Assembly: GCA_001780725.1 (NCBI GenBank)
Contig: MFIM01000009.1
Coordinates: 656-64,655, forward strand
Origin: Candidatus Giovannonibacteria bacterium RIFCSPLOWO2_02_FULL_45_28
Lineage (GTDB): Bacteria > Patescibacteriota > Minisyncoccia > UBA11713 > 2-01-FULL-45-33
DNA length: 64,000 nucleotides
Reading direction: 5' to 3'
Positions 3,294 through 64,000 of the stretch are shown in pieces. The notes below the pieces were generated by a model. That model was not told the DNA's origin. It did no database searches and was given only the letters and a program-made list of their open reading frames with translations. A program made the position numbers and the translations under genes. Every line of letters starts with the position of its first letter. Positions within the stretch are counted from its first letter, which is position 1.

Positions 3294-3863
3294 TTATGTT
3301 AAGCTGAAATATTGTTTTAGATGCAATTCATTGTCAATTTGATGGGCGAGTATTGTTCGGACATACGGACGCAGATTGAAAAACTCAATTACAAAATCAA
3401 CTTCACTACCGCATTCAAAAGGATGGACAAAAACGCTTTTTTGTAGTCTATAAAAACCCATGTTTTTTAATGCTTTTGCTAAGGCATCCCGCGCTTTTTT
3501 ATGGCGCTCTGGAATGTCAAACAATATTATGCGCCATTTTTTATCCCATTTTTTCATTTCTGGCACCCTGATTGTGTCTATGTTGTAAGTTGTGGCCCTT
3601 TTGCGTCCTTGTTCTGTCAAAACGATGGTCGTAGTATCGTCTTTGTTTTCTTTAATATCAACAAGGCGCGATCTATACAAATTTCTTATTGTGCGTCTGA
3701 GAGTGTGCTGATTGATTTTCTGCCAATCTTTCTTTATTGTTTCTATGGTGCGCCAATATTGTTTTGGTGATCGAGCAAATCCTAAAACAACCCCTCCCAA
3801 CAACAGCAGCAAAACTTTTTGAGCAGTTGGCCCGAGCCTTTTCTCTAAATATTTTTTTCTCAT
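3294..3863 (-). CDS. PaaX-like putative transcriptional regulator (Cas2-fold C-terminal domain) with N-terminal hydrophobic segment
   Basis: WRIILFDIPERHKKARDALAKALKNMGFYRLQKSVFVHP resembles the PaaX/Cas2-like fold. The family assignment is from memory only. Confidence 0.4.
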   Translation of the reverse strand: MRKKYLEKRLGPTAQKVLLLLLGGVVLGFARSPKQYWRTIETIKKDWQKINQHTLRRTIRNLYRSRLVDIKENKDDTTTIVLTEQGRKRATTYNIDTIRVPEMKKWDKKWRIILFDIPERHKKARDALAKALKNMGFYRLQKSVFVHPFECGSEVDFVIEFFNLRPYVRTILAHQIDNELHLKQYFSLT

Positions 3864-3902: not shown

Positions 3903-3948
3903 AAATCTTACCATTTCACAGCTATAGCGGTCAAATGGTAAGATTTTT
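3903..3948 (+). repeat. 46-nt hairpin plus T-run element, copy 2
   Basis: aaatcttaccatttcacagctatagcggtcaaatggtaagattttt. Perfect 10-bp stem cttaccattt/aaatggtaag followed by a T-run. Confidence 0.6.
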
Positions 3949-20502: not shown

Positions 20503-22869
20503 ATGGTGAATTTTCGGATAAAATTAGCTTTGTTTTTAGTGATTTTCCTCTCTCTCTCTCTCGCACAGGCCAATGCCGCTTTTGACTTTTCTTTTGCCAA
20601 TCTTTCTCAATCCAACTCTCTTGCCTCCGTATGGGAAAATGTAAAAGACGACATACAAGACTCATGGGAAAACATAAAAGAGTGGCTACTTCCCGCTCCG
20701 CCGCCCCCATCAACCCCGCCAGGCGAGCAAAAACCGTCGCCCTCATCAACGCGCGGGAAAACATCCAATGTTGAATCCCCAAAAACATCGGATGTTGAGG
20801 AGCGCGTTTTCCCGGGCAACGATTTCGAAGAAGAAAGCAAGACAATCACATCTGAACAACCTCTCGCAACCGAGCGCGCTCCGGAACGCGTCACAGTTTC
20901 CACTAACGGAATTACAGAAGCTCGTCTTTTGCAGTCGCTCAATGCCTTGCGCGAAGAGCTATTGGATCGCTTCTCGCAGATTATCGTCTCCGCGCCCGCG
21001 CCGCTTACATTTCATGGTCCTGCGGAAACAACGCCTGCTTCCGTCGCTATGCTGGCTTTATCCCAAAGAATCAACAACCTATCCGGCAGTTCCAATTCCC
21101 CGCTTACCATCTCCGGAGCAACTTTCTCCGGCTCCAATACTTTTAGCCTTACGGATGCCGATGTTCCCGACGGCATCACTGCTTCCAGCTATCTCCCGCT
21201 TTCCGGAGGCACGCTCTCGGGCGCGCTTACCGGAACCAATCTTACTCTCTCCGGCAACCTCACCGTTTCCGGAGCTCAAACTCTTTCCGGCGCCATCACT
21301 ATTCCCTATCTCACCGCGACCTCCACCACCCAGCCCTCCACTTTCGCCTACAACGTCGGCATCGGGACGACGAGTCCGTGGGGGTTATTATCAGTACATC
21401 CCGACGGGATTACCGGTCCCGCTTTTGTGGTCGGTTCATCAACTGCAACAAACTTTATCGTAACTAACGGCGGCAACGTCGGGATTGGGACGACGAGTCC
21501 GACGGCGCTATTGCATGTGGCGCATACCACCGATATTAGTAAAACCTTAATTAACGCAACTTATCTCGGTTTCTCCAAATTTAAGTTGAGATACGATGAG
21601 GGTTCTAATTACCACATTTTGGAAATCTTTAACAGCACGCTTGCTGGGTTTGGTATTACTCTTAATGCAACAGATTGGACCAGTCGCACTGTGACAATAC
21701 GGGGACATATTGATGCTTCGATACCGCTGACCGTTCAATCTAATGACAACACTCCATCACTTGACATTTTCCAGGTGCGCAGGAGTGGCACTCTAATAGA
21801 CCTTGTGGTTAATTCAAGCGGCTTTGTAGGCATAGGCACATCCACCCCAAATTGGCTCCTGCAGGCGGCTGGAACGCGTCCGTTTTTTACCCTCTCCGAC
21901 ACCGCGGCGGGAACGGATTTGAAACATTGGTATTTGTCATCTCAAGGCGGCAATCTGTATGTGGGCACCACCACCGATGCCTATGCCACCACCACCAATT
22001 ATCAAGCATTGACTATATTAAATAACGGCAACGTCGGCATCGGGACGACGAGTCCATGGCGCACCTTTTCGGTGGCGGGGACGGTGGGATTCTCTTCTAC
22101 CCTAACTTCTTCTGCAACGGGAGATTACCTTTGCATAAATACCGACACATACGAGGTCTCAAGAGGCGCGGGAAGCATCTGCACCACTTCTTCCGAAAGA
22201 TACAAAGAGAATTTTGAAGAACTCGCCTACGGACTGGATTCCGTACTCAAACTTCACCCAATCTCATTTGAATACAAGCCCGAGCTTAATATCGGCCCAG
22301 GCCGCAGAATCGGTTTCACTGCCGAGGAAGTGATTAATGTCATTCCCGAAGCGGTTGTGCTTGATAAAGAAGGTCTGCCCAGCGGGGTTGAATACGAAAA
22401 ACTAACCGCGGTTTTGGCAAAAGCCATACAGGAGCTTTACCAAAAAATTATCTCGCTTTTTGATAAAGACAAGGAGCAAGATCAGCGCATCGCTGAGCTT
22501 GAAGCGCGTATAAATGCTCTGGAGGGAGGAGCGCCGGCGGCGGATACCTCCGCCTCCGCCGAGGCTTCGGCGGACAAGGAACCCCCGACCATCACCATCA
22601 ACGGCAACAATCCCGCGAGAATAGAAGTCGGCGCGGCATACAGCGACCTTGGCGCAACCGTCACTGATAATGTCAATGACAATCTCGGTATTGAAATGTT
22701 TGTCGGAGAAACGCCCATGGAGCAGGCATATATTGATACGAGCGAACCGAATACTTACCACATCACTTACCGCGCAACCGATCAGGCGGGTAATGTCGGC
22801 GAGGCGGTGCGTACGGTGGAGGTGTATAGCCAAGCGACAACAACTTTATCCGAAATCCCGTCTCCGTAA
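20503..22869 (+). CDS. secreted tail-fibre-like surface protein with peptidase S74 intramolecular-chaperone domain and C-terminal Ig-like (DUF5011-like) domain
   Basis: Signal peptide MVNFRIKLALFLVIFLSLSLAQANA; Pro-rich linker; three-to-four GNVGIGTTSP repeats; SERYKENFEEL..LHPISFEYKP..GFTAEEVINVIPEAV..AIQELYQKI matches the intramolecular-chaperone domain; PPTITINGNNPARIEVGAAYSDLGATVTDNV..HITYRATDQAGN is Ig-like. Confidence 0.7.
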   Translation: MVNFRIKLALFLVIFLSLSLAQANAAFDFSFANLSQSNSLASVWENVKDDIQDSWENIKEWLLPAPPPPSTPPGEQKPSPSSTRGKTSNVESPKTSDVEERVFPGNDFEEESKTITSEQPLATERAPERVTVSTNGITEARLLQSLNALREELLDRFSQIIVSAPAPLTFHGPAETTPASVAMLALSQRINNLSGSSNSPLTISGATFSGSNTFSLTDADVPDGITASSYLPLSGGTLSGALTGTNLTLSGNLTVSGAQTLSGAITIPYLTATSTTQPSTFAYNVGIGTTSPWGLLSVHPDGITGPAFVVGSSTATNFIVTNGGNVGIGTTSPTALLHVAHTTDISKTLINATYLGFSKFKLRYDEGSNYHILEIFNSTLAGFGITLNATDWTSRTVTIRGHIDASIPLTVQSNDNTPSLDIFQVRRSGTLIDLVVNSSGFVGIGTSTPNWLLQAAGTRPFFTLSDTAAGTDLKHWYLSSQGGNLYVGTTTDAYATTTNYQALTILNNGNVGIGTTSPWRTFSVAGTVGFSSTLTSSATGDYLCINTDTYEVSRGAGSICTTSSERYKENFEELAYGLDSVLKLHPISFEYKPELNIGPGRRIGFTAEEVINVIPEAVVLDKEGLPSGVEYEKLTAVLAKAIQELYQKIISLFDKDKEQDQRIAELEARINALEGGAPAADTSASAEASADKEPPTITINGNNPARIEVGAAYSDLGATVTDNVNDNLGIEMFVGETPMEQAYIDTSEPNTYHITYRATDQAGNVGEAVRTVEVYSQATTTLSEIPSP
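20548..20562 (+). repeat. (CT)7 dinucleotide tract inside the signal-peptide coding region (encodes LSLSLS)
   Basis: cctctctctctctctc read directly. Confidence 0.8.
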
Positions 22870-22969: not shown

Positions 22970-22987
22970 TATAGAAACAGCGCTTTC

Positions 22988-23060
22988 TCCGCCCACCAGG
23001 AATCGAACCTGGAACCTTCTCCTTAAAAGGGAGCTGCTCTGCCAATTGAGCTATGGGCGG
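22988..23060 (-). tRNA. tRNA-Lys (anticodon UUU)
   Basis: Folded by hand: 7-bp acceptor CCGCCCA/TGGGCGG, D-arm GCTC..GAGC, anticodon loop CTTTTAA, T-arm CCAGG-TTCGATT-CCTGG, discriminator A. No encoded CCA. Confidence 0.85.
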
Positions 23061-23083
23061 AGGAAGCGCTGTGCTTCCACTAC

Positions 23084-36555: not shown

Positions 36556-37673
36556 AAATAGTACTTACCGGCGGGGGAACGGGTGGGCACTTTTATCCGA
36601 TTATTGCCGTAGGGCGCGCCCTTAAAAAGGAAGCCGAGGCTGAAAATATTGCCAGGCTTGAAATCTTTTTTGTGTCAGACGATCCGATGGATCTGGATTT
36701 GCTTTTTCGCGAAAATATTAAATTTATAAAAATTCCAGCAGGAAAGATGCGCAGATATTTTTCATTGCGCTATTTCGGCGATACGATAAAAACAATCATA
36801 GGGCTTATCTCGGCTCTTTGGCGGCTTTATCTTTTAATTCCCGATGTGATTTTTGGGAAAGGGGGCTATGCCAGCTTCCCGGCGCTTTTTGTCGCGCGAA
36901 TACTCCGCATACCGGTGATAATCCACGATTCGGATGCCGTGCCCGGACTTGTGAACCAGTGGGCCGGAAAATGGGCGGATCGAATAGCAGTGTCTTTTCC
37001 CGAATCAGCGCGTTATTTTACCGGTAAAAATGTCGCAGTAACTGGAAATCCGATCAGATCGCAAATTGTTGGCGGAAATCTTGAAGAGGCAATTGAGTAT
37101 TTTAAATTGGAAGAAAATTTGCCAACAATTTTGATACTGGGCGGTTCGCAAGGGTCGGAGCGCATCAACGAAACCGCGCTCGCGATACTTGAAGAGGCGG
37201 TAAAAAAATATCAGATTATTCATCAAACCGGAAAGAATCATTTTGCGGATGTTTCCGGGCGGGCAAGGGTTTTGTTGGAAAAAAGCGAGAGTAAAAATCG
37301 CTATCATCCTTGTGGATTTTTGGATGAGGGAGAGCTACGGAATGCTTCGCGGGCCGCGTCAATTGTGGTGGCGCGCGCATCCTCCGGACTTTTTGAAATC
37401 GCAGCTTGGGGCTTGCCGGCAATTTTGATTCCTCTGCCTACGGCCGCTCAAAACCATCAGCGCGAAAACGCTTATACTTACGCAAGATTCGGAGCTTGCG
37501 AGGTGATTGAGGAAACAAACCTTACGCCGCACATTCTTTTGGCTGAAATTGACAAAATTTTAGAGAATCCGGAGCGTGTTAAAAAAATGAAATTTGCAGC
37601 AGCAGGATTTGCGCGTCTTGACGCCGCCGACAAAATCGCAAAAGAAATAATTAAACTAGGGGTTCATGAGTAA
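36552..37673 (+). CDS. murG: UDP-GlcNAc:lipid I N-acetylglucosaminyltransferase MurG
   Basis: LTGGGTGGHFYP at the N-terminus. Confidence 0.9.
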   Translation: MKIVLTGGGTGGHFYPIIAVGRALKKEAEAENIARLEIFFVSDDPMDLDLLFRENIKFIKIPAGKMRRYFSLRYFGDTIKTIIGLISALWRLYLLIPDVIFGKGGYASFPALFVARILRIPVIIHDSDAVPGLVNQWAGKWADRIAVSFPESARYFTGKNVAVTGNPIRSQIVGGNLEEAIEYFKLEENLPTILILGGSQGSERINETALAILEEAVKKYQIIHQTGKNHFADVSGRARVLLEKSESKNRYHPCGFLDEGELRNASRAASIVVARASSGLFEIAAWGLPAILIPLPTAAQNHQRENAYTYARFGACEVIEETNLTPHILLAEIDKILENPERVKKMKFAAAGFARLDAADKIAKEIIKLGVHE

Positions 37674-39027
37674 TAAAACGCGCACAAGATTTGCCCCAAG
37701 CCCGACGGGATTTTTGCATGTCGGGGGGCTTCGCACTGCGCTTTACAATTATCTTTTTGCAAAGCAAAACGGGGGACAGTTTATTTTGCGGATAGAAGAT
37801 ACCGACCGCGCGCGCCTTGCGGAGGGCGCAGAGAAAAATATTATTGAAACACTGCGGATTTTCGGTTTGGATTTTGACGAAGGGCCGATCAGGCAATCAG
37901 AACGTTTGGAGAGATACAAAGAGCGCACCGAAGAGTTGGTAAAGAAAGGCACGGCTTATCCGGATGCGGGCGCCGTTCGTTTCAAAATGGGAAAAGACGG
38001 CGTAACCGAGTTCACCGATATTATCCGCGGCGAGATTCAAATAGAAAATAAAACGCAGGAAGATTTTGTCATTTTAAAATCAGACGGCTACCCGACTTAT
38101 AATCTCGCGCATTTGGTAGACGACCACGATACGGCAATAACGCACGTAATCAGGGGCGACGAATTTATTTCATCAATGCCGAAATATATCGCGCTGCACA
38201 AGGCGTTTGGCTGGGAACTTCCTCAATACGCGCACCTGCCGTTGATTTTGGATAAAAATCGGGCGAAACTTTCCAAAAGGGAGGGGGAGGTGGCGGTTTA
38301 CGATTTTTTGGATAAAGGTTATCTCAAAGAGGCAGTTTTAAATTTCGTCGCGCTTTTAGGTTGGCACCCAAGCAAATCAGACAAAGAGCTTTTTACTTTG
38401 GAAGAACTGATAAAAGAGTTCAAGCTGGAAGATGTCCAGAAAGCCGGAGCTATTTTTGATATTCAAAAACTGGACTGGATGAACGGAGAGTACATTAGAA
38501 AAAAAACGCCGAAAGAGCTGGTTCGGCTAGCGATGCCGTTTTTGGAAAAGGCAAGATTAACTCTCATCCCAACCCCTCCCCCTTACGAAGGGGGAGGGGA
38601 GAGGGGAGGGGGTGGTTCTTCCTTTTTGGAAAAAATAATCGCTTTGGAACAGCCGCGCCTCAAAAAACTCTCGGAACTTCCTGAAAAAATTGATTATTTC
38701 TTTAAAGAACCGGAATATGATGCGGGCATGCTCAAGTGGAAAAAGATGACGAATAACGAAATCAAAAAATCTTTGGAAACTTCAAAAAATATTTTAGAAT
38801 CTCTCAAAGATAAAGATTTCAACAAAGAAAATCTGGAAAAAGTATTTTTAGAAAAAGCTGGAAACTTGTCCGCCGGAAAGGCGGGAGATAGGGGAGAGCT
38901 GCTTTGGCCATTGCGCGCCGCCCTCACTGGCCGCAAAGCCTCCCCCGGCCCGTTTGAAATAATGGAAATTTTGGGGCAAAAAAAATCTATTACGCGTGTT
39001 CAAATAGCTATTGACAAAATAATTTGA
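37666..39027 (+). CDS. gltX: glutamyl-tRNA synthetase
   Basis: FAPSPTGFLHVGG and KLSKR. Contains an in-frame GC-rich palindrome insert encoding PTPPPYEGGGERGGGGS. Confidence 0.9.
   Translation: MSNKTRTRFAPSPTGFLHVGGLRTALYNYLFAKQNGGQFILRIEDTDRARLAEGAEKNIIETLRIFGLDFDEGPIRQSERLERYKERTEELVKKGTAYPDAGAVRFKMGKDGVTEFTDIIRGEIQIENKTQEDFVILKSDGYPTYNLAHLVDDHDTAITHVIRGDEFISSMPKYIALHKAFGWELPQYAHLPLILDKNRAKLSKREGEVAVYDFLDKGYLKEAVLNFVALLGWHPSKSDKELFTLEELIKEFKLEDVQKAGAIFDIQKLDWMNGEYIRKKTPKELVRLAMPFLEKARLTLIPTPPPYEGGGERGGGGSSFLEKIIALEQPRLKKLSELPEKIDYFFKEPEYDAGMLKWKKMTNNEIKKSLETSKNILESLKDKDFNKENLEKVFLEKAGNLSAGKAGDRGELLWPLRAALTGRKASPGPFEIMEILGQKKSITRVQIAIDKII
38573..38599 (+). repeat. GC-rich palindromic micro-element inside gltX (CCCCTCCCCC-ttacgaa-GGGGGAGGGG)
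   Basis: Read directly. Preceded by AACCCCTCCCCC, a motif shared with 32765..32790 and 62744..62760. Confidence 0.6.
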
Positions 39028-44750: not shown

Positions 44751-46178
44751 ATGACGGTATTGCGCCTTTTCAACTTTCTAACGAGAAAAAAGGAGGTTTT
44801 TAGACCGCTTCGCCGAAATGTCGTGGGGTTTTATGCTTGCGGGCCGACGGTTTATAACTACGCGCACATCGGCAACCTCCGGACTTACATTTTTGAGGAT
44901 GTTTTGCGCCGTACATTGGAATACGCAGGATATAAGGTTAAGCACGTGATGAATATCACGGATGTGGATGACAAAATTATTAAAGGCGCAAACGCGACAG
45001 GCAAAAATATTCATACTTTTTCCGAGCCTTATAAAAAGGCGTTTTTTGAAGACATAAAAAAACTTAATATTTTGCCCGCGTGGAAATATCCGGAAGCCAC
45101 AAAACATATCAAAGAAATGGCCGCGCTGATTCTTAAACTTCTAAAATCCAAGCTGGCTTATAAAGCCGAGGGTTCAGTGTATTTTGATGTCTCAAAATTT
45201 AAAAACTACGGCAAACTCTCCGGATTAAAAAAAAGAGAATTAAAAATCGGTGCGCGGGTTGACGCGGATGAATACGAGAAAAACGCCGGAGAAGATTTTG
45301 TTTTGTGGAAAGCAAAAAAAACTGCGGAGCCAAATTGGCCCGCCCGCTTTGCGGGCGAGGCTCGCCCCCTTTGGGGGCGGCCTGGTTGGCATATTGAATG
45401 CTCGGCAATGTCTATGAAATATCTTGGAGCAAGTTTTGATATTCACGCCGGAGGGGTTGATCTATTATTTCCGCACCACGAAAATGAAATCGCCCAATCA
45501 GAGGGTGCGACAAATAAAAAGTTTGTGAAATATTTTTTGGAGGGAGAGCACCTTTTAGCAGACGGCAAAAGAATGGCAAAATCGGCAGGCATTTTTTTTA
45601 CTTTGCGCGATTTAGAAAAAAAAGGCTTCAGCCCCCTCGCCTTCCGGTATCTTGCGCTATCCGCTCACTACCGTTCACAGCTCAATTTTACCTTGGAGTC
45701 GCTGAAAGCGGCGGGAAATTCGCTGGAGAGGTTATGGGGGTTTGTGAGAATGCTTTCCGGAAGTCAGCAAGTTTTTTCGCGCTTAACCCTCCCTCGAAGC
45801 TCGGGGGGCTCCGACGCGTCTCAAAAACTTACTGACTTCCGTCAGCAATTTAGCTCCGCCATTTTCAACGACCTTAATACTTCAAAAGCGTTGGCTGTGG
45901 TATGGAAAATAGTCAACGAATACAACAAAAAGCCAGAAAAATTTAATGTTGGCGCCGTTTTGAGCCTTCTGTATGATTTTGACAAGGTTTTAGGACTCGG
46001 ATTACGCGAGGTGGTACAGGTAAAACCGACAAAAGAAATTTTAGCGCTTTCCAAAGAGCGCGAAAAAGCAAGAAAAGCCGGAAATTTCGCCGTTGCCGAT
46101 GAAATTCGCCGAAAAATAACGGCTATTGGCTGGCAAATCAAAGATACGCCGTCTGGGCCAGAACTTATTCACGCATAA
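44751..46178 (+). CDS. cysS: cysteinyl-tRNA synthetase
   Basis: CGPTVYNYAHIGN, WHIECSAM and a KMSKS-like RMAKSAG. Contains in-frame GC-hairpin inserts (ARFAGEARPLWGRP). Confidence 0.9.
   Translation: MTVLRLFNFLTRKKEVFRPLRRNVVGFYACGPTVYNYAHIGNLRTYIFEDVLRRTLEYAGYKVKHVMNITDVDDKIIKGANATGKNIHTFSEPYKKAFFEDIKKLNILPAWKYPEATKHIKEMAALILKLLKSKLAYKAEGSVYFDVSKFKNYGKLSGLKKRELKIGARVDADEYEKNAGEDFVLWKAKKTAEPNWPARFAGEARPLWGRPGWHIECSAMSMKYLGASFDIHAGGVDLLFPHHENEIAQSEGATNKKFVKYFLEGEHLLADGKRMAKSAGIFFTLRDLEKKGFSPLAFRYLALSAHYRSQLNFTLESLKAAGNSLERLWGFVRMLSGSQQVFSRLTLPRSSGGSDASQKLTDFRQQFSSAIFNDLNTSKALAVVWKIVNEYNKKPEKFNVGAVLSLLYDFDKVLGLGLREVVQVKPTKEILALSKEREKARKAGNFAVADEIRRKITAIGWQIKDTPSGPELIHA
45340..45377 (+). repeat. 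two GC-rich perfect mini-hairpins inside cysS (CGCCCGC-ttt-GCGGGCG and GCCCCC-ttt-GGGGGC)
   Basis: Read directly. Same class as the gltX and GT39 inserts. Confidence 0.55.
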
Positions 46179-48811: not shown

Positions 48812-49849
48812 TTACTCCATCTCCTCCGGTTTGTCCAGAAGTGCCGGCTCGTATTCGCCGCCTCTGCCGGCTATCCGCAAAACATCCTTGTCTATCTTTT
48901 TAAATTCTTTCTGGGCGCTGTTGTAGGCTCCAACTGTTTGCGAAAGGCCTTTGCCTATTTTATTGACAAAATCATCGTAGCTCAAAAGATGTTTGTGTAA
49001 ATTTTCCACCTGTTTTACGATATCCTGCGTTTGCTCGGAAATTTTTTGGTTTTTGAGGCCCTGCAGAACCGTTTGCAAATAAGCAAGAAATGAAGTTGGA
49101 GATACTACAATGACGCGTTTTTGGCCGGCATAATTTATCAGGTTCCTGGTGTCGTCCGCGACTGCCCCAACTTTATTTATAAGAAGATCATAATACACCG
49201 CTTCGGAAGGAATAAACATAAACGCGAAATCCATGGTGTTTTCTTCCGGCTTCACATATTTGGATGTTTCGTCAATGCGGATTTTGAGGTCGGCGACAAA
49301 TGCCTGCTCGTACCTTTTTTTCTCCATAGCATCGCGCGCCTCCAAAATTCTATTATAATTTTCCAGACTGAATTTGGAGTCAATCGGGATTATGCGCTTA
49401 TCCACAAAAACAACCGCGTCAACAATAACGCCGTCAGAAAAAGCATATTGCATTTGGTAGCTCCCCGGAGGCAGCACGTTTTTAAGCACGGTTTCCAGAT
49501 AATATTCGCCTAAAATCCCCCTTTGTTTTGGGTTCTTTAAAATATCCTGAAGATTTTTAAGCTGGTCGGCGAAATTAACTACCTGCCGATTTGTTTCGTC
49601 CAATTTGGTCAGACGTTCCGTCACATTTCTTATAATTTTCGCCGATTCGCTGAATTGGCTTTGCATTATTTTTGTTGACTCCCCCATTTTTTGGTCCATT
49701 GCCTGCCTGATTTCAGCAAGCTGCTGCTGGAGCATCAAAAGCGACTGGCTTTCCTGCGGCGAACTTTGTTTTTTTGAGAAAAAATAAAAAACAACGATTC
49801 CTGCAATCAAACCAAGCACTGCGGCTAAAATTGAAATTAGCTCACCCAT
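48812..49849 (-). CDS. rmuC: DNA recombination protein RmuC
   Basis: N-terminal TM, coiled coil, RmuC C-terminal domain (..VIVVSPTSFLAYLQTV..). Confidence 0.75.
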   Translation of the reverse strand: MGELISILAAVLGLIAGIVVFYFFSKKQSSPQESQSLLMLQQQLAEIRQAMDQKMGESTKIMQSQFSESAKIIRNVTERLTKLDETNRQVVNFADQLKNLQDILKNPKQRGILGEYYLETVLKNVLPPGSYQMQYAFSDGVIVDAVVFVDKRIIPIDSKFSLENYNRILEARDAMEKKRYEQAFVADLKIRIDETSKYVKPEENTMDFAFMFIPSEAVYYDLLINKVGAVADDTRNLINYAGQKRVIVVSPTSFLAYLQTVLQGLKNQKISEQTQDIVKQVENLHKHLLSYDDFVNKIGKGLSQTVGAYNSAQKEFKKIDKDVLRIAGRGGEYEPALLDKPEEME

Positions 49850-55486: not shown

Positions 55487-55852
55487 ATGAATTACCTTGT
55501 TTTAGCAGTAATTACGGCGCTTGTTGCGTTTCCGCAACAAGCGCACGAACAGGCTCTGCCGGAAGCGCCTGCAGGAATTGCGCAAAGCGCTGCGCCTGAA
55601 ATTTTGGAGAAAATCGCCTTTTGCGAGTCGCAAGGCAGACATTTTGACGAAAACGGTAAAGTGCTCATCGGCGGAATTAACAAACATGACATCGGCAAGT
55701 ATCAGATCAACTCTCTTTACTGGCGCGAACTTGCAGAACGGCTTGGGTACGACATTGAAGCAGAAGAAGGCAACGAGGCGATGGCAATAGAACTTTACAG
55801 AAGATACGGGACTGCGCCGTGGAAGTGGTCAAAGAAATGCTGGAGCGCGTAA
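55487..55852 (+). CDS. small secreted transglycosylase-like (Rpf-type) protein
   Basis: Signal peptide; IAFCESQGRHFDENG..DIGKYQIN..YW resembles the Rpf/lytic transglycosylase core. Confidence 0.5.
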   Translation: MNYLVLAVITALVAFPQQAHEQALPEAPAGIAQSAAPEILEKIAFCESQGRHFDENGKVLIGGINKHDIGKYQINSLYWRELAERLGYDIEAEEGNEAMAIELYRRYGTAPWKWSKKCWSA

Positions 55853-59965: not shown

Positions 59966-60351
59966 TTGATTTTTCTGGCTTGAAGTAGCTTTTCGTAATA
60001 TTTGTCCGTCAAAGTGTCGTGGAATTCGTCTAGAAGGTGCGGGTTTTTAAGAGAGTTGACGACTTTAAGCGCGGATACAATTCCCTTTGTTAGTGCCAGC
60101 GAAACGAGCTCTTCAATAATGTGCGCGTGTTCCTGCTCCTTAAGGTCGTAGGCGGCTTTTTGGGCGGCGTCATCCGAAATGGAAGGCGTCGGCGGCGGTC
60201 CGCCGGTTGGCGGATGCGCGGCTTCACGTATCGCTTCGCGCACAATCTCTTTTTCGTGCTTTGCCTCGCCGCGTCCGGCAAGCTCCTTTTTTCTGGCCTC
60301 CAGCTGTTCTTCCAGCCATTTTATTTCCTCATGTACGGATTCCTGGGGCAT
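59962..60351 (-). CDS. hypothetical protein translationally coupled to the coupling-protein-like gene
   Basis: 4-nt overlap with the downstream gene start; Pro/Gly-rich middle region. Confidence 0.4.
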   Translation of the reverse strand: MPQESVHEEIKWLEEQLEARKKELAGRGEAKHEKEIVREAIREAAHPPTGGPPPTPSISDDAAQKAAYDLKEQEHAHIIEELVSLALTKGIVSALKVVNSLKNPHLLDEFHDTLTDKYYEKLLQARKIK

Positions 60352-60374
60352 ATTCCTTATGATACAATAAATAT

Positions 60375-62063
60375 ATGCGAGGAGCTACTTTGTGGCTTGT
60401 TATTATTTTACTTATAGCGGTTTTTTTCCGTTTTTACGATTTAAAAAATGTGCCGCCAGGGCTGTGGGCGGACGAAGCAATAAACGGGAATAATGCGGTG
60501 GAGGCGAACTGGAAAGTTTTTTACCCGGAGAATTTTGGCAGAGAAGGCCTTTTTATAAATATTCAATCGTTGTTTGTCACCGCCTTCGGCAACGAGCCGT
60601 GGGTATTGCGCTTGCCTTCGGCGATTTTCGGCGCATTGACCGTGCTGGGGCTTTATTTAATGACACGCGAACTATTTAGCGGAAAGGTTGCGTTGTTCGC
60701 TTCTTTTTTTCTGGCAACTTCTTTTTGGCATATTAATTTTTCCCGCATCGGATTCCGCGCGATTATGGCGCCGTTTTTTTTGGTCTGGAGTTTCTATTTT
60801 TTATTTTTAGGAATGAGAAAAACTGCGACCTTCTCAACACTCGGTGTTGAATCACCAAAAACACAGAGTGTTTTCCCAGTCGCAGTTTTTGCTTTGGCTG
60901 GATTACTTTTTGGCCTCGGCTTTCACTCCTATATTGCTTACCGAATTGCGCCCGTAATCGCACTTTTGCCGCTTTGGAAATTTTATAAATTGCGGTTGAT
61001 TGAAGTCCGACTTCAATCAGTTTCTGATGGAAGTCGGACTTCAATCATTTCTCGCGCTTGCACGCCGTGCCTAATTGGCCTTTTTATTTTCATGGCTTTC
61101 GTTGCCGCTCTTCCTTTGCTTTGGTATTATGCGCAGAATCCGGCGGATTTTTTGGGAAGAACTTCGGCAATATCAATTTTCCGATCACCGAACCCGCTCG
61201 CTCAATTTTCAGAAAATTTTGTAAAAACTCTGGGGATGTTCAATGTTGTAGGCGATTTTAACTGGCGGCACAATCTTGCCGGCTCTCCCCAGCTTTGGTG
61301 GTCAGTAGGAATTTTATTTCTTTTTGGTCTTTTGGTCGCATTGCGCTCCTCAACACTCGGTGTTAAATCCCAAAAAACACCGAGTGTTTTCCCGCGCAAT
61401 GCGTATAATTTTGTTCTGCTTTGGTTTGCAATCATGCTATTGCCAGTCGCTCTTTCCAACGAATCTTTGCCGCATGCCCTTCGCGCCATTGTTTTGATAC
61501 CGCCTGCGATGATTTTTGCCGCTTTGGGGCTGGAACGGATTATTGAAAAATTTAAAACGTGGCTAGAAAAGCAAAAAAACAATTGGCCGAGCAAGCTAAA
61601 CCAGCTTCTTCGCATACAGCGCGAGCTTATTTTATTGCTTTTTGTATTTTTTGCCGCCAATATTGCCCATGCTTATAACGCATACTTTCTTCGCTGGGCT
61701 CCAAATTTTAACGTTTACCAAGCATTTCAGGTCGACATTACGGAAAAGGCTCATTGGCTTAATCAACAGCCAGAAAACATTAAAAAATATGTTATTACTG
61801 ACGCCGTTGATCGTATAGATATAAGCGGCTCTCCAATGTCGCTTCAACCGGTTATTTTTATCACAAATACTTTTTTTGAAAAAGTTCAGAAAGAAAAAAA
61901 TATTTATTATTTTGGCGCAAACAATCTGAGCGGCGTTGATTGCTCCGGCAAATGCGTTATTATCCCGGTTGAATCAAAACCCACAATTTATAAAACCCTG
62001 AAACAAAAAATCCCAGGTTTGCGCTTGGATGCTTCCCCTGGGTTTGTGATTTTTAGAAAATGA
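60375..62063 (+). CDS. GT-C fold glycosyltransferase family 39 (PMT/ArnT-like)
   Basis: N-terminal DE motif (WADEAINGNNA), about 12 TM. Carries three in-frame palindromic inserts. Confidence 0.7.
   Translation: MRGATLWLVIILLIAVFFRFYDLKNVPPGLWADEAINGNNAVEANWKVFYPENFGREGLFINIQSLFVTAFGNEPWVLRLPSAIFGALTVLGLYLMTRELFSGKVALFASFFLATSFWHINFSRIGFRAIMAPFFLVWSFYFLFLGMRKTATFSTLGVESPKTQSVFPVAVFALAGLLFGLGFHSYIAYRIAPVIALLPLWKFYKLRLIEVRLQSVSDGSRTSIISRACTPCLIGLFIFMAFVAALPLLWYYAQNPADFLGRTSAISIFRSPNPLAQFSENFVKTLGMFNVVGDFNWRHNLAGSPQLWWSVGILFLFGLLVALRSSTLGVKSQKTPSVFPRNAYNFVLLWFAIMLLPVALSNESLPHALRAIVLIPPAMIFAALGLERIIEKFKTWLEKQKNNWPSKLNQLLRIQRELILLLFVFFAANIAHAYNAYFLRWAPNFNVYQAFQVDITEKAHWLNQQPENIKKYVITDAVDRIDISGSPMSLQPVIFITNTFFEKVQKEKNIYYFGANNLSGVDCSGKCVIIPVESKPTIYKTLKQKIPGLRLDASPGFVIFRK
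60821..60877 (+). repeat. 57-bp in-frame palindromic element, copy 1, inside the GT39 gene
   Basis: aactgcgacc..CAACACTCGGTGTTgaatcaccaaaaaCACAGAGTGTT..gtcgcagtt: nested inverted repeats. About 90% identical core to 61338..61402. Confidence 0.7.
60997..61047 (+). repeat. tandem 23-nt palindromes (tgattgaagtccgacttcaatca / tgatggaagtcggacttcaatca) inside the GT39 gene
   Basis: Read directly. In-frame, encoding LIEVRLQSVSDGSRTSII. Confidence 0.65.
61338..61402 (+). repeat. 65-bp in-frame palindromic element, copy 2, inside the GT39 gene
   Basis: gcattgcgc..CAACACTCGGTGTTaaatcccaaaaaaCACCGAGTGTT..gcgcaatgc. Confidence 0.7.
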
Positions 62064-63787
62064 ATAAATACGCGAATTATTTAGCAATTTTGATGCTCGC
62101 GATAATGTTTGCGCTGATGTTTGGGTCAAGCATAAATGATTCGGCGATTTTTGATGAGGTGGCGCATATCGGGGCGGGATACACATATTTGAAGTATCAA
62201 GACGGAAGGCTGAATCCGGAGCACCCACCGCTTTTGAAAAGTTTGGCCGCGTTGCCACTTGTGTTTCTGAATTTGAAATTTGACCAAGGACAGCAATTTT
62301 GGACAATAGAAAATGTGAACGATCGGCAATGGCTTGCCGGCAATCACCTTCTATATGAAGCTGGCAACGATGCAGATCAAATTCTTTTTTGGTCGCGATT
62401 GCCAATGATTTTGCTAACTATTCTTTTTGGGTGGATTTTGTTTTGGTGGGTAAAAAGGCGCTATGGAGCGAGAGTGGGATTGCTTACTTTATTTTTCTTT
62501 TCCGTCTCTCCTACTTTTTTAGCGCACGGAAGATATGTTACAACCGATGTCGGAGCCGCATTCGGATTTTTTCTTGGAATCATTTTTTTTCTAAAGTTTT
62601 TGGAAAGGTGGGATTTAAAATCAGCAATTTGGCTAGGTATAGTACTGGGGTTTGCCCTGCTTCTTAAATTTTCGCTTGTTTTATTGCTGCCGGTTTATTT
62701 GATTTTGGGAGTTTTTCGGATATTTCTCGGTCGCAGAAAAGATAACCCCTCCCCCCAACCCACTCCCCTAGGGGGAGTGGGGAATTGGGTGGGGTTCCTC
62801 TCATTATTGGGGACACTTGCTTTCTCCAGCCTCATTGCTTTAGCCATCGTTTGTATCGCTTATATCTCCCAAATCTGGAATTATCCTCATGACCAGCAGA
62901 TAAAAGATTCGCGCTACATTCTTGCGGGCTACCAATATCAATCTTTGGCAAAACTTGATTTTTGGCTTACAGAACACAAGCTAACGCGGCCGCTAGGGCT
63001 TTACTCGCAGGGCTTTTTGATGGTTGCGCGGCGCACTGCCGGTGGAAATACGGCTTACTTTATGGGCGAGGTTTCTTCAAAAGGATGGTGGTCATATTTT
63101 CCGACTCTGGCAATCACAAAAGAACAGCTTGGGTTTTATATTTTAGCGGCGGTGGCGATTTTTTGGGCAATAAAAAAACGAGCAAAGCCGGATTTTGTAA
63201 GTTTATCTGCAATTGTTTTTATAATCTTTTATTGGATTTCTTCAATTTTAAATCCGTTAAACATCGGTGTGAGGCACGTGCTCCCGACTTTTCCGTTTTT
63301 ATATTTTTTAGTGGCGAAAGAATTATCTGAAATAAAACTGAATTTGTTAACCGTAGTTATAATGCTATGGATGATTGTGGAAATAATTCTAGCTTTTCCC
63401 TACTATCTTTCTTATTACAACGCGCTGGGAGGCGGTTTGCAAAACGGCTACAAAATCGCAACTGATTCCAACCATGACTGGGGGCAGGACTTAAAACGCC
63501 TCCGCGATTATGTGGAAAAAAGTAATATTTCAAAAATAAATCTTGATTATTTCGGAGGCGGTTCACCAAAATATTATCTAGGAGAAAAATATGAAGGCTG
63601 GTGGTCATCGCGCGGCGCTCCTCCTGCCGGCTCTTATTTTGCCGTATCGCTTAATTCTTTGACCGGCAACCAAGCCAAACCGATCGGCGATGTGCAGATC
63701 AAGCCGGAAGACACCTATTCTTGGCTCAAAAACAAAACCCCGATTGCTCGGGGTGGAATATCTATTTTGATATTTAAGATAGATTAA
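62060..63787 (+). CDS. second GT-C glycosyltransferase family 39 (ArnT/PMT-like) paralogue
   Basis: DEVAH..GY..HPPLLK N-terminal motif, multi-TM. In-frame GC palindrome insert at 62744..62800. Confidence 0.7.
   Translation: MNKYANYLAILMLAIMFALMFGSSINDSAIFDEVAHIGAGYTYLKYQDGRLNPEHPPLLKSLAALPLVFLNLKFDQGQQFWTIENVNDRQWLAGNHLLYEAGNDADQILFWSRLPMILLTILFGWILFWWVKRRYGARVGLLTLFFFSVSPTFLAHGRYVTTDVGAAFGFFLGIIFFLKFLERWDLKSAIWLGIVLGFALLLKFSLVLLLPVYLILGVFRIFLGRRKDNPSPQPTPLGGVGNWVGFLSLLGTLAFSSLIALAIVCIAYISQIWNYPHDQQIKDSRYILAGYQYQSLAKLDFWLTEHKLTRPLGLYSQGFLMVARRTAGGNTAYFMGEVSSKGWWSYFPTLAITKEQLGFYILAAVAIFWAIKKRAKPDFVSLSAIVFIIFYWISSILNPLNIGVRHVLPTFPFLYFLVAKELSEIKLNLLTVVIMLWMIVEIILAFPYYLSYYNALGGGLQNGYKIATDSNHDWGQDLKRLRDYVEKSNISKINLDYFGGGSPKYYLGEKYEGWWSSRGAPPAGSYFAVSLNSLTGNQAKPIGDVQIKPEDTYSWLKNKTPIARGGISILIFKID
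62759..62781 (+). repeat. GC-rich palindrome CCCACTCCCC-ta-GGGGAGTGGG inside the second GT39 gene, preceded by AACCCCTCCCCCCAACC
   Basis: Read directly. Encodes DNPSPQPTPLGGVGNW. Confidence 0.6.
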
Positions 63788-63790
63788 TAA

Positions 63791-64000
63791 TTAATCATCC
63801 CATCCACGCTCTTTCCATTCATACTCATCAATGCCAATGTTATTGAGGACTTTTGTTTTTAATTCATTGCGTTTGTTCTTCGGGATAAAGCCTCTTTTGC
63901 CTCCTTTCTTACGCCAATATTTCATTATCCGTGAGTCTACATGCTTATATATTTGCTCCACGTAAGTATTAAAGTAGTCACTATAAGCAGTTTCCTTTGC
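63791..64000 (-). CDS. partial hypothetical protein (N-terminus beyond window)
   Basis: Minus-strand frame reads ..YVEQIYKHVDSRIMKYWRKKGGKRGFIPKNKRNELKTKVLNNIGIDEYEWKERGWDD-stop. Confidence 0.3.
   Translation of the reverse strand, partial: AKETAYSDYFNTYVEQIYKHVDSRIMKYWRKKGGKRGFIPKNKRNELKTKVLNNIGIDEYEWKERGWDD

Follow-up and report, generated by a model that had tools for sequence, protein, structure and literature searches.

The closest described counterparts of the elements reported here are the Rickettsia palindromic elements (RPEs; Ogata et al. 2000), which are described in PMC10969869 as inserting in frame into unrelated genes, where they encode a conserved peptide, and as measuring about 150 bp when first reported. 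Here we show that a stretch of 64,000 nucleotides from contig MFIM01000009.1 of Candidatus Giovannonibacteria bacterium RIFCSPLOWO2_02_FULL_45_28 (hereafter the window) carries three in-frame palindromic inserts in a gene encoding a PMT_2/glycosyltransferase family 39 (GT39)-like membrane protein of 562 aa (60375..62063, plus strand). Two of these inserts are copies of an element that recurs in unrelated genes of Patescibacteria, i.e. of the Candidate Phyla Radiation (CPR). An initial annotation of the window had likened the inserts to RPEs, and the behaviour summarized in PMC10969869, namely in-frame insertion into unrelated genes with a conserved peptide, supports this as an analogy, not as membership. 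Like RPEs, the CPR elements are hairpin-forming palindromic repeats, dispersed in multiple in-frame copies over many unrelated and often essential genes, with a conserved peptide, permissive positions, several families and no known transposase. RPEs are said to lose repeat identity over time (PMC6649704), whereas pairing is actively kept in the CPR elements. Further features that set the CPR elements apart are a two-level hairpin whose internal pyrimidine loop is fixed at 5x5, an outer stem that is specific to the site and consists partly of host codons, flips and nesting. With a core of 47-48 nt and a whole hairpin of 57-79 nt they reach a third to half of the RPE size, and all 47 of 47 loci with perfect arms belong to Patescibacteria, while RPEs, with which no relationship in sequence was established and no direct comparison made, belong to Alphaproteobacteria.

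Mobile hairpins are also known from mitochondria, as exemplified by the GC clusters of yeast (GC42; PMC4478555), the repetitive hairpin-forming elements of sponges and the double-hairpin elements of Allomyces. They resemble the CPR elements in a size of about 40-50 nt, in stems that are conserved over loops, in proposed merger and shuffling, in an uncertain mechanism and in the location of some copies in coding or rRNA regions, but they reside in organelle genomes and are mostly intergenic. GC42 has AG target nucleotides at its ends (PMC4478555); a GC42-like direct repeat was not seen in the CPR elements, and nothing points to common descent. For the mitochondrial genes of Nematomorpha, PMC6649704 describes coding palindromes that are unique, long (up to 284 bp) and composed of conserved coding sequence. 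They share with the CPR elements inverted repeats in translated genes with both arms coding, perfect or near-perfect arms suggesting active conversion, dynamic gain and loss, template switching as proposed origin and a phase bias. However, they have no shared mobile core, whereas the CPR core is dispersed among genes and only its outer stem is host-like.

Repetitive extragenic palindromic (REP) sequences and REPINs, which go together with RAYT (Y1/HUH) transposases, are short imperfect palindromes and extragenic by definition. The arrangement of an inverted doublet as a longer hairpin with spacer, a short motif at the hairpin foot and many copies per genome are common to both systems, but 45 of 48 distinct CPR copies lie inside long open frames and are translated. 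Template-switch (quasi-palindrome) mutation, a subject of PMC6649704 and bioRxiv 10.1101/2023.04.19.537475, can generate a perfect complementary arm in one step and apparent double changes without G-U intermediates, but it is a process rather than an element family and leaves the shared unpaired core unexplained. The hallmarks of classical MITEs (miniature transposable elements with inverted repeats), i.e. a direct target duplication and a parent insertion sequence, were found neither in the few available pairs of filled and empty sites nor among 14 open reading frames (ORFs) of the window. We therefore file the elements as translated palindromic insertion elements of Patescibacteria.

Three in-frame inserts in a GT39-like gene

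The closest named homologues of the host protein are labelled GT39 and come from Candidatus Giovannonibacteria. Its Pfam PMT_2 match (E=1.3e-8; 35.6 bits vs a gathering cut-off of 26.1) stops at residue 152, which is the start of insert 1. The AlphaFold model (pTM 0.85) has an all-helical membrane fold, compatible with a multi-helix GT-C-like protein. The ORF runs from 60375 to 62063 without stop or frameshift across all three inserts, which code for the peptides that the initial annotation had quoted.

Two copies of one element are present where that annotation had placed them, both AACAC-type and in sense orientation. They were scored with R1, a covariance model built on 42 copies that finds three members in the window. 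Copy 1 (60818..60890, plus strand; 77.3 bits) consists of an outer stem formed by AAAAACTGCGAC (60818-60829) and GTCGCAGTTTTT (60879-60890), an internal loop with CTTCTC (60830-60835) facing TTCCCA (60873-60878), 13-nt arms AACACTCGGTGTT (60836-60848) and AACACAGAGTGTT (60860-60872) with 2 mismatches, and the loop GAATCACCAAA (60849-60859); it encodes the peptide TATFSTLGVESPKTQSVFPVAV (residues about 148-172). Copy 2 (61337..61403, plus strand; 86.9 bits) has the outer stem CGCATTGCGC (61337-61346)/GCGCAATGCG (61394-61403), the internal loop TCCTC (61347-61351)/TTCCC (61389-61393), perfect arms AACACTCGGTGTT (61352-61364) and AACACCGAGTGTT (61376-61388) and the loop AAATCCCAAAA (61365-61375), and encodes ALRSSTLGVKSQKTPSVFPRNA. 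The two cores are 90% identical over 48 nt, as had been estimated, and the arm motif matches five times in the window vs 0.24 expected matches. The outer stems of the two copies are unrelated to each other while being self-complementary within each copy. Thus, of the roughly 60-bp element that had been proposed, the two copies stand, whereas the fixed unit of 57/65 bp dissolves into a core of 47-48 nt plus a variable outer stem. Likewise, the complementary outer flanks exist, but rather than being a fixed part of the element they consist, at least in part, of host sequence accompanied by an inverted copy of it.

Between the two copies lies a representative of a second palindromic family (60997..61047, plus strand), in which the tandem 23-nt palindromes noted before are indeed present. 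Its structure is TGATTGAAGTCCGACTTCAATCA-GTTTC-TGATGGAAGTCGGACTTCAATCA, in which the 13-mer GAAGTCCGACTTC is the basic unit. The arms of 24 nt have 96% complementarity, and the encoded peptide is LIEVRLQSVSDGSRTSII. RNA folding of the three inserts is predicted at -30.2, -36.9 and -35.7 kcal/mol (z = -6.9, -10.8 and -9.5), and none of 200 shuffles folds as stably as any of them; predicted DNA folding gives z = -7.6, -9.6 and -10.6.

Alignment of 24 GT39 homologues and codon alignments of 21 syntenic orthologues with DNA revealed that most orthologues have short conserved loops without insert at all three sites (e.g. ...RKQKEWIF... at site 1 and ...SFKKIKWPESF... at site 3). A minority carries palindromic inserts, often of other kinds, at exactly the same three positions, so that each of the GT39 loops accommodates several kinds of palindromic insert. 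This confirms the proposal that the inserts are lineage-specific. Their suspected location in loops is likewise reproduced by the AlphaFold model: inserts 1 and 3 fall in non-helical loops (156-165 and 326-342) between long helices, and insert 2 spans a short break (219-220) between helices 187-218 and 221-254. Stretches with a predicted local distance difference test (pLDDT) score below 50 (159-164, 222-227 and 328-337) coincide with the inserts (residues about 148-172, 208-225 and 321-343) between predicted membrane helices.

At site 1 of locus L052, the outer stem of the window and the TCCTC/TTCCC loop enclose a two-level interior of 73 nt belonging to another subfamily; the corresponding interior in the window is a 37-nt hairpin. 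The site-3 copy is present in orthologous position in L052, L065/L048 and L018, with compensatory changes, and as a decayed remnant in L055, from which exactly 33 nt have been deleted in frame. The second-family element was also detected in the GT39 orthologues P0005 and P0011. The net gains at the three sites amount to 14, 17 and 20 codons, as inferred by hand from loops that are too variable for exact boundaries; insertion limits are better defined in LepA and UvrA. Considering GT39 and LepA together, the net gain of 13-20 codons is smaller than the core plus two full arms, which fits overwriting or replacement of loop residues.

Two GT39 proteins in the database, P0014 and P0016, are identical to the protein of the window and then switch to the sequence of another lineage, P0016 at insert 1 and P0014 about 35 residues past insert 2. 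They are probably natural recombinants or assembly chimeras and were left out as evidence for empty alleles. Orthologues of GT39 and LepA (P0009, P0011, P0015, P0020, L069, L070) contain, at various sites, further recurrent in-frame peptide modules (AQILQDLAQRDGASRAI..., LPAGKAG, GPPAGG, NPKQYPNPNDQN...FGILNFGNWNLFGISDL), which look like additional repeat families.

A dispersed family with paired arms and a preferred codon phase

To assess dispersal, one genome per species (185,579 species) was scanned with the pattern AACACTCGGTGTT-N8-14-AACACNGAGTGTT, i.e. with perfect arms. The 47 loci detected are distributed over about 25 metagenome-assembled genomes (MAGs), all from Patescibacteria: Giovannoni-, Niyogi-, Kaiser-, Vogel- and Sungii-bacteria, Paceibacterota, bins labelled Saccharibacteria, or unclassified. 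Two MAGs of Giovannonibacteria contain about 9 loci each. With these loci and three members within the window, the elements are not unique. A scan of viral contigs with both arm patterns yielded no match and hence no sign of phage carriage, no transposase was found among the 14 window ORFs scanned, and searches of the accessible literature for palindromic in-frame elements in CPR bacteria, and for the literal sequences or the peptide, returned nothing.

The elements share a common order: a GC-rich outer stem of 5-16 bp, C-TCCTC, a 13-nt arm, the loop, the complementary arm, TTCCC-G and the second strand of the outer stem. The loop measures 8, 11 or 14 nt, most commonly with the sequence GAATCCCCAAA. 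The arms form the subfamilies AACACTCGGTGTT, GAAACCTGGTTTT, GAAGTCCGACTTC, AACATCGGGTGTT and AACACCCGGTGTT, across which internal loop and loop are kept while the arm is replaced with full compensation. As the GAAGTCCGACTTC arm is also found within the TCCTC...TTCCC architecture (L020, L064, L069), the window segment 60997-61047 is tied to the same super-family. The second-family unit recurs in LepA of another Giovannonibacterium (L134/P0144) as LIEVGLQSVADGSPTSIS, in flipped state; compared to the copy of the window, the central bases of the two 23-mers, C and G, have swapped places.

Pairing was quantified in 42 copies. In total, 92.8% of the cells are paired vs 71.7% after shuffling, and the inner helix is paired to 99.6%. 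Double-sided changes occur in 10 of 13 pairs of the inner and in 11 of 12 pairs of the outer helix; both partners are altered in 214 cells and a single partner in about 17, which leaves almost no G-U pairs. This scarcity of G-U and the occurrence of both orientations indicate an inverted repeat at the level of DNA rather than an RNA under structural selection, and on the same grounds outer stems due to pure structured-RNA covariation were ruled out. The outer arms are matched within each copy: left and right arm pair over a mean of 8.5 bp, vs 2.4 bp when right arms are permuted among copies. They contain 76% GC vs 43% for the loci and follow the degenerate consensus CGCC(G/T)C(G/C)C.

The open frames that harbor 45 of the 48 distinct copies comprise at least 150 codons. 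Their hosts are housekeeping genes with no relation to one another, among them LeuRS, LepA, UvrB, Mur ligases such as MurE, GatB, PheS and helicases, and 103 Pfam families are represented in total; UvrA was identified as host gene from the sequences of L010 and L006. A single codon phase, in which a codon starts with the first base of the 47-nt interior, is shared by 42 of the 45 copies (29 sense, 13 antisense). This phase yields SSTLGV-x-TPSVFP in sense and GKTLGV-x-TPSVEE in antisense orientation, with the peptide SSTLGVESPKTPSVFP in the 29 sense and GKTLGVFGDSTPSVEE in the 13 antisense copies. Copies in long open frames have loops of 8, 11 or 14 nt exclusively. Loops of 9, 10 or 13 nt are found in four copies, two of which lie in open frames of less than 75 codons and all of which are off-phase or at the edge of an ORF. 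Together with the single phase and the loss of 33 nt in L055, the loop lengths argue that the segment is neither spliced out nor bypassed. Peptides expected from translated elements include TPSVFPR, SSTLGVESPK, STLGVESPK and TLGVFGDSTPSVEER.

Stop codons do not explain the use of a single phase, since another phase (QHSVLNPQKHRVFS) is free of stops in either orientation and yet essentially unused. In the used phase, the third codon positions of one arm pair with the third positions of the other. This minimises the conflict of pairing with coding and may underlie the bias, alternatives being selection at the level of the peptide or a target preference. A favoured-phase effect for coding palindromes is described in PMC6649704.

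Outer stems, flipped states and the origin of the hairpins

Orthologous genes with and without insert provide information on the outer stems. Empty LepA alleles read IP-x-P, followed by 6-8 residues and RALIFD. In the filled allele L133 (ATT CCG CCG CCC | core | G GGC GGC GGA), the left arm corresponds to the conserved Ile-Pro-Pro-Pro codons of the host and the right arm repeats them as an exact reverse complement over 10 nt. The same principle of an arm made of host codons applies to LepA of L008 and L003, indicating that at least part of the stem is written from host flank. The UvrA pair L010 (filled) and L006 (empty), which shares 78% aa identity, gives GD|SPRSSTLGVESPKTPSVFPRGE|ESKFEG vs GD-G-EKFEG. 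Here, the insertion is clean, measures 60-66 nt and has the consensus-like arms CCTCGC and GCGAGG; further out, GAATC mirrors GATTC of the host. There is a GCGAGG/CGAGG stutter and no obvious direct duplication, few pairs being close enough to judge. In general, the flanks of the elements are inverted and not direct repeats. An origin of the outer stems wholly from host flank is only partly right, given their GC content and consensus and a UvrA insertion that seems to bring both arms.

Orthologues also differ in the orientation of the element. LepA carries it in sense in L008 and in antisense in L003; in closely related UvrB genes the same site is occupied by a sense copy (L040), an antisense copy (L012) or a GAAGTC-type element (L020); and relative to LeuRS of L001, taken as reference state, the loop alone is flipped in L034 and the whole core in L037. 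Direct translation demonstrates that inversion of the 47-nt interior in place converts SSTLGVESPKTPSVFP to GKTLGVFGDSTPSVEE with the frame kept. As inversion preserves the frame, recombination or template switching between the inverted arms is a sufficient explanation for both states. Nested elements exist in L002, L043, MurE of L012, the window (20731-20825) and site 1 of L052. The LepA loop has received at least five kinds of palindromic insert. More generally, single permissive loops were noted as hot spots in LepA, UvrB and MurE loci (L003, L008, L012, L016, L020, L040, L131-L134).

The site-3 copy of GT39 bears on the age of an insert. Between the window and L052, the element has 95.5% nucleotide identity vs 72.8% in the rest of the gene (third positions 91% vs 53%), and between the window and L065 the values are 90.5% vs 63.0% (third positions 90% vs 43%). 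Within the stems, the copies differ by compensatory pairs; beyond these, the loop has changed in L052, and so has the edge of the outer stem in L065. On the gene tree, the bearers are scattered (window and L052; L065; the remnant in L055; L018). They have the site-specific stem and a loop variant in common.

Taken together, it is well supported that the elements are dispersed, translated and loop-restricted palindromes with actively maintained hairpins. We consider it probable that they represent families of very short translated palindromic elements that have spread or been copied into protein genes of Patescibacteria, their hairpin being kept by copying of the template-switch type. As to how they spread and are maintained, the patterns suggest the following scenario. 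An element would arrive with short GC-rich arms, possibly via microhomology with the host. During or after insertion, intra-strand template switching or conversion from arm to arm would preserve the hairpin and lengthen it outward, templated copying turning one flank into the other's reverse complement. The interior would be flipped in situ, with the frame kept, by recombination between the inverted arms. Copies persist only in permissive surface or inter-helix loops and in essentially one codon phase. Candidate routes to new copies are microhomology-guided template switching between loci or a HUH/Y1-type single-stranded DNA enzyme acting on the hairpin.

More speculatively, and with clearly less confidence, the elements might constitute a new class of bacterial mobile hairpin, in which a foldable cassette of about 47 nt is copied between genes by a hairpin/template-switch route, possibly involving a HUH-type nickase. 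The outer stem would then be built by the mechanism itself, as the flanking host sequence copied in inverse orientation ('inverted target duplication'), interiors would be swapped or nested at the TCCTC/TTCCC junctions, and flips would resemble those of the parvoviral flip/flop termini.

Several observations weigh against spread by copying of a short element as we propose it. Neither a transposase nor a target-site duplication nor a classical MITE terminal inverted repeat was found, so that mobility is inferred from the distribution of the elements. The outer arms do not look like simply random host flank in view of their GC bias and consensus, and the UvrA element looks as if it brought its own arms. 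Each arm may be part element and part host sequence. The near-exclusive codon phase is not accounted for by stop codons alone. Judged by its sequence, the site-3 copy is too well kept for an old neutral insertion, which should have decayed; to account for its conservation, the copy must have arrived recently, been exchanged laterally or been homogenised, or be under real selection as DNA or RNA. Moreover, its patchy distribution fits neither simple vertical descent nor a single gain. The copy may have been acquired recently or repeatedly at a preferred site, exchanged laterally among co-occurring lineages, converted, or selected at the level of DNA; the partner switches in P0014 and P0016 are compatible with recombination or with assembly chimeras.

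The conservation of the site-3 copy, third positions included, could also mean that the hairpins are recruited modules of benefit to the host, e.g. mRNA stems slowing ribosomes at domain or helix boundaries, DNA cruciforms or protein-binding sites. Pairing that is kept through many compensatory changes, internal-loop and loop motifs conserved over several CPR lineages, and inserts at boundaries between helices or domains would all agree with such a role. However, the use of both orientations and the flips of loop or core between orthologues imply that no single RNA or asymmetric motif is conserved, and compensation by Watson-Crick pairs with hardly any G-U is typical of DNA inverted repeats. 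In addition, most orthologues do without insert, some copies are decayed, and unrelated families replace one another in the same loop. We thus regard a beneficial function as unlikely, and the elements appear to be selfish or neutral rather than useful to the host. A purely local origin, i.e. recurrent template-switch palindromes that arise in permissive loops and look alike through mutational bias or convergence, would dispense with a mobile element altogether. Indeed, host codons can reappear in inverted form as one of the outer arms, the same loops contain many small and apparently unique palindromes (DLDVGRPSGRPTSF and NLEAGLPSGSPASF in LepA, EAAKPPLGGLAAK in GT39), and template switching is reported to make perfect hairpins (bioRxiv 10.1101/2023.04.19.537475; PMC6649704). 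Nevertheless, identical cores of 37-47 nt, unpaired bases included, are present in more than 40 unrelated genes and several genera; since the same unpaired sequence stands at many sites, local templated mutation cannot be its source, and this explanation is very improbable.

We also considered that the protein might remain unaffected because the segments are removed before or during translation, by a mini-intron, by processing similar to that of bulge-helix-bulge (BHB) motifs, or by bypass as in the mitochondrial 'byp' elements. The hairpins are very stable, and palindromic elements bypassed by the ribosome exist in a yeast mitochondrion, as mentioned in PMC6649704. Against this, the copies in long ORFs are in frame and lack stops, their loop lengths are restricted as described, 42 of 45 use one phase, and the deletion derivative has lost a multiple of three bases; frame and multiple-of-three constraints would not bind a segment that is removed. 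A scan of 60300-63900 against Rfam 15 with E up to 10 returned only chance miRNA-like matches (E at least 0.077, far under the gathering scores) and no intron or ribozyme, upon which a reading as ribozyme or intron was dropped. Removal of the segments is therefore hardly credible. It is scarcely conceivable that they are ancestral in GT39 and were lost by other lineages, even though site 3 is common to genes with as little as 57% aa identity: the empty orthologues have a conserved short loop in common (S-F/I-K-K-I/F-K/R-W-P-E/N-S/N-F), which no deletion of the element could produce, the same core resides in unrelated genes, the element is much younger, or much better preserved, than the gene, and its distribution on the gene tree is patchy.

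Further palindromes in the window and implications

The third family member of the window is diverged and three-level nested (20731..20825, minus strand; R1 57.7 bits, E=1e-14 at 20743-20813 of the minus strand). Its build is AAACCGTCGCCC TCATC AACGCGC GGGAA AACATCCAATGTT GAATCCCCAAA AACATCGGATGTT GAGGA GCGCGTT TTCCC GGGCAACGATTT. It lies in frame within the ORF of a predicted surface protein (20503-22869, plus strand) with Pfam matches to Bact_surface_Ig-like and Peptidase_S74 (chaperone domain), the innermost element being antisense to the gene. Hence, the element family is not limited to the GT39 gene in this genome. A separate two-level palindrome made of C- and G-runs (62744..62796, plus strand) sits in frame in the adjacent PMT_2 gene (62060-63787), with arms AACCCCTCCCCCCAACCCACTCCCC tag GGGGAGTGGGGAATTGGGTGGGGTT and the peptide NPSPQPTPLGGVGNWVG; on account of its composition, folding reaches a z of only -2.5. 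It is present in the window and the sister lineage L052, reduced to a half-remnant in L055 and absent from L049, L018, L050 and L054.

Perfect hairpins (stem of at least 9 bp, loop of 3-15 nt) number 12 in the window vs about 4 in triplet shuffles. Two of the hairpins in the window have perfect 12-bp stems, namely CCCCTCCCCCTT acg AAGGGGGAGGGG at 38573-38599 (ORF 37666-39027) and GCGCTTGTTGCG tttc CGCAACAAGCGC at 55517-55544 (ORF 55487-55852). The ORF of cysteinyl-tRNA synthetase (CysRS; 44751-46178) includes an in-frame nested hairpin at 45758-45841, with 19-nt arms that are 95% complementary and the peptide LSGSQQVFSRLTLPRSSGGSDASQKLTDFRQQ. It sits between the catalytic and DALR domains and is probably another palindromic insertion of a different family. 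At 3903-3946, a near-perfect spacerless palindrome of 44 nt occupies an intergenic position beside a PaaX_M/Cas2-like ORF (3294-3863). An inverted repeat at 22977-23072 was rejected as an element, as it corresponds to the gene of tRNA-Lys(ttt) (22987-23061, minus strand). The window also encodes an RmuC-family protein (48812-49849). In E. coli, RmuC is reported to limit inversions at short inverted repeats; by analogy, this gene may be relevant to a genome rich in flipping palindromes, or its presence may be a coincidence.

In-frame palindromic 'selfish' DNA has hitherto been tied mainly to Rickettsia and organelles, and the same life-style is now encountered in Patescibacteria, a vast radiation whose members have tiny genomes and are mostly uncultured, in which elements of about 50 nt are found in aminoacyl-tRNA synthetases, LepA, Uvr proteins and cell-wall enzymes. 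They account for some of the unusual insertions by which domain models are interrupted in CPR proteins, as illustrated by the Pfam match that stops at an insert. They may also be break points of metagenome assembly, considering that two database proteins look chimeric at or near inserts, and they are natural markers of strain history. The outer stem of host codons, compensation through Watson-Crick pairs only and the flipped states of orthologues all point to single-strand hairpin chemistry, and the data make it testable how such elements move and why their hairpins stay perfect. If they do form a class of mobile hairpins, they would continually supply variation in loop peptides to the streamlined CPR proteomes.

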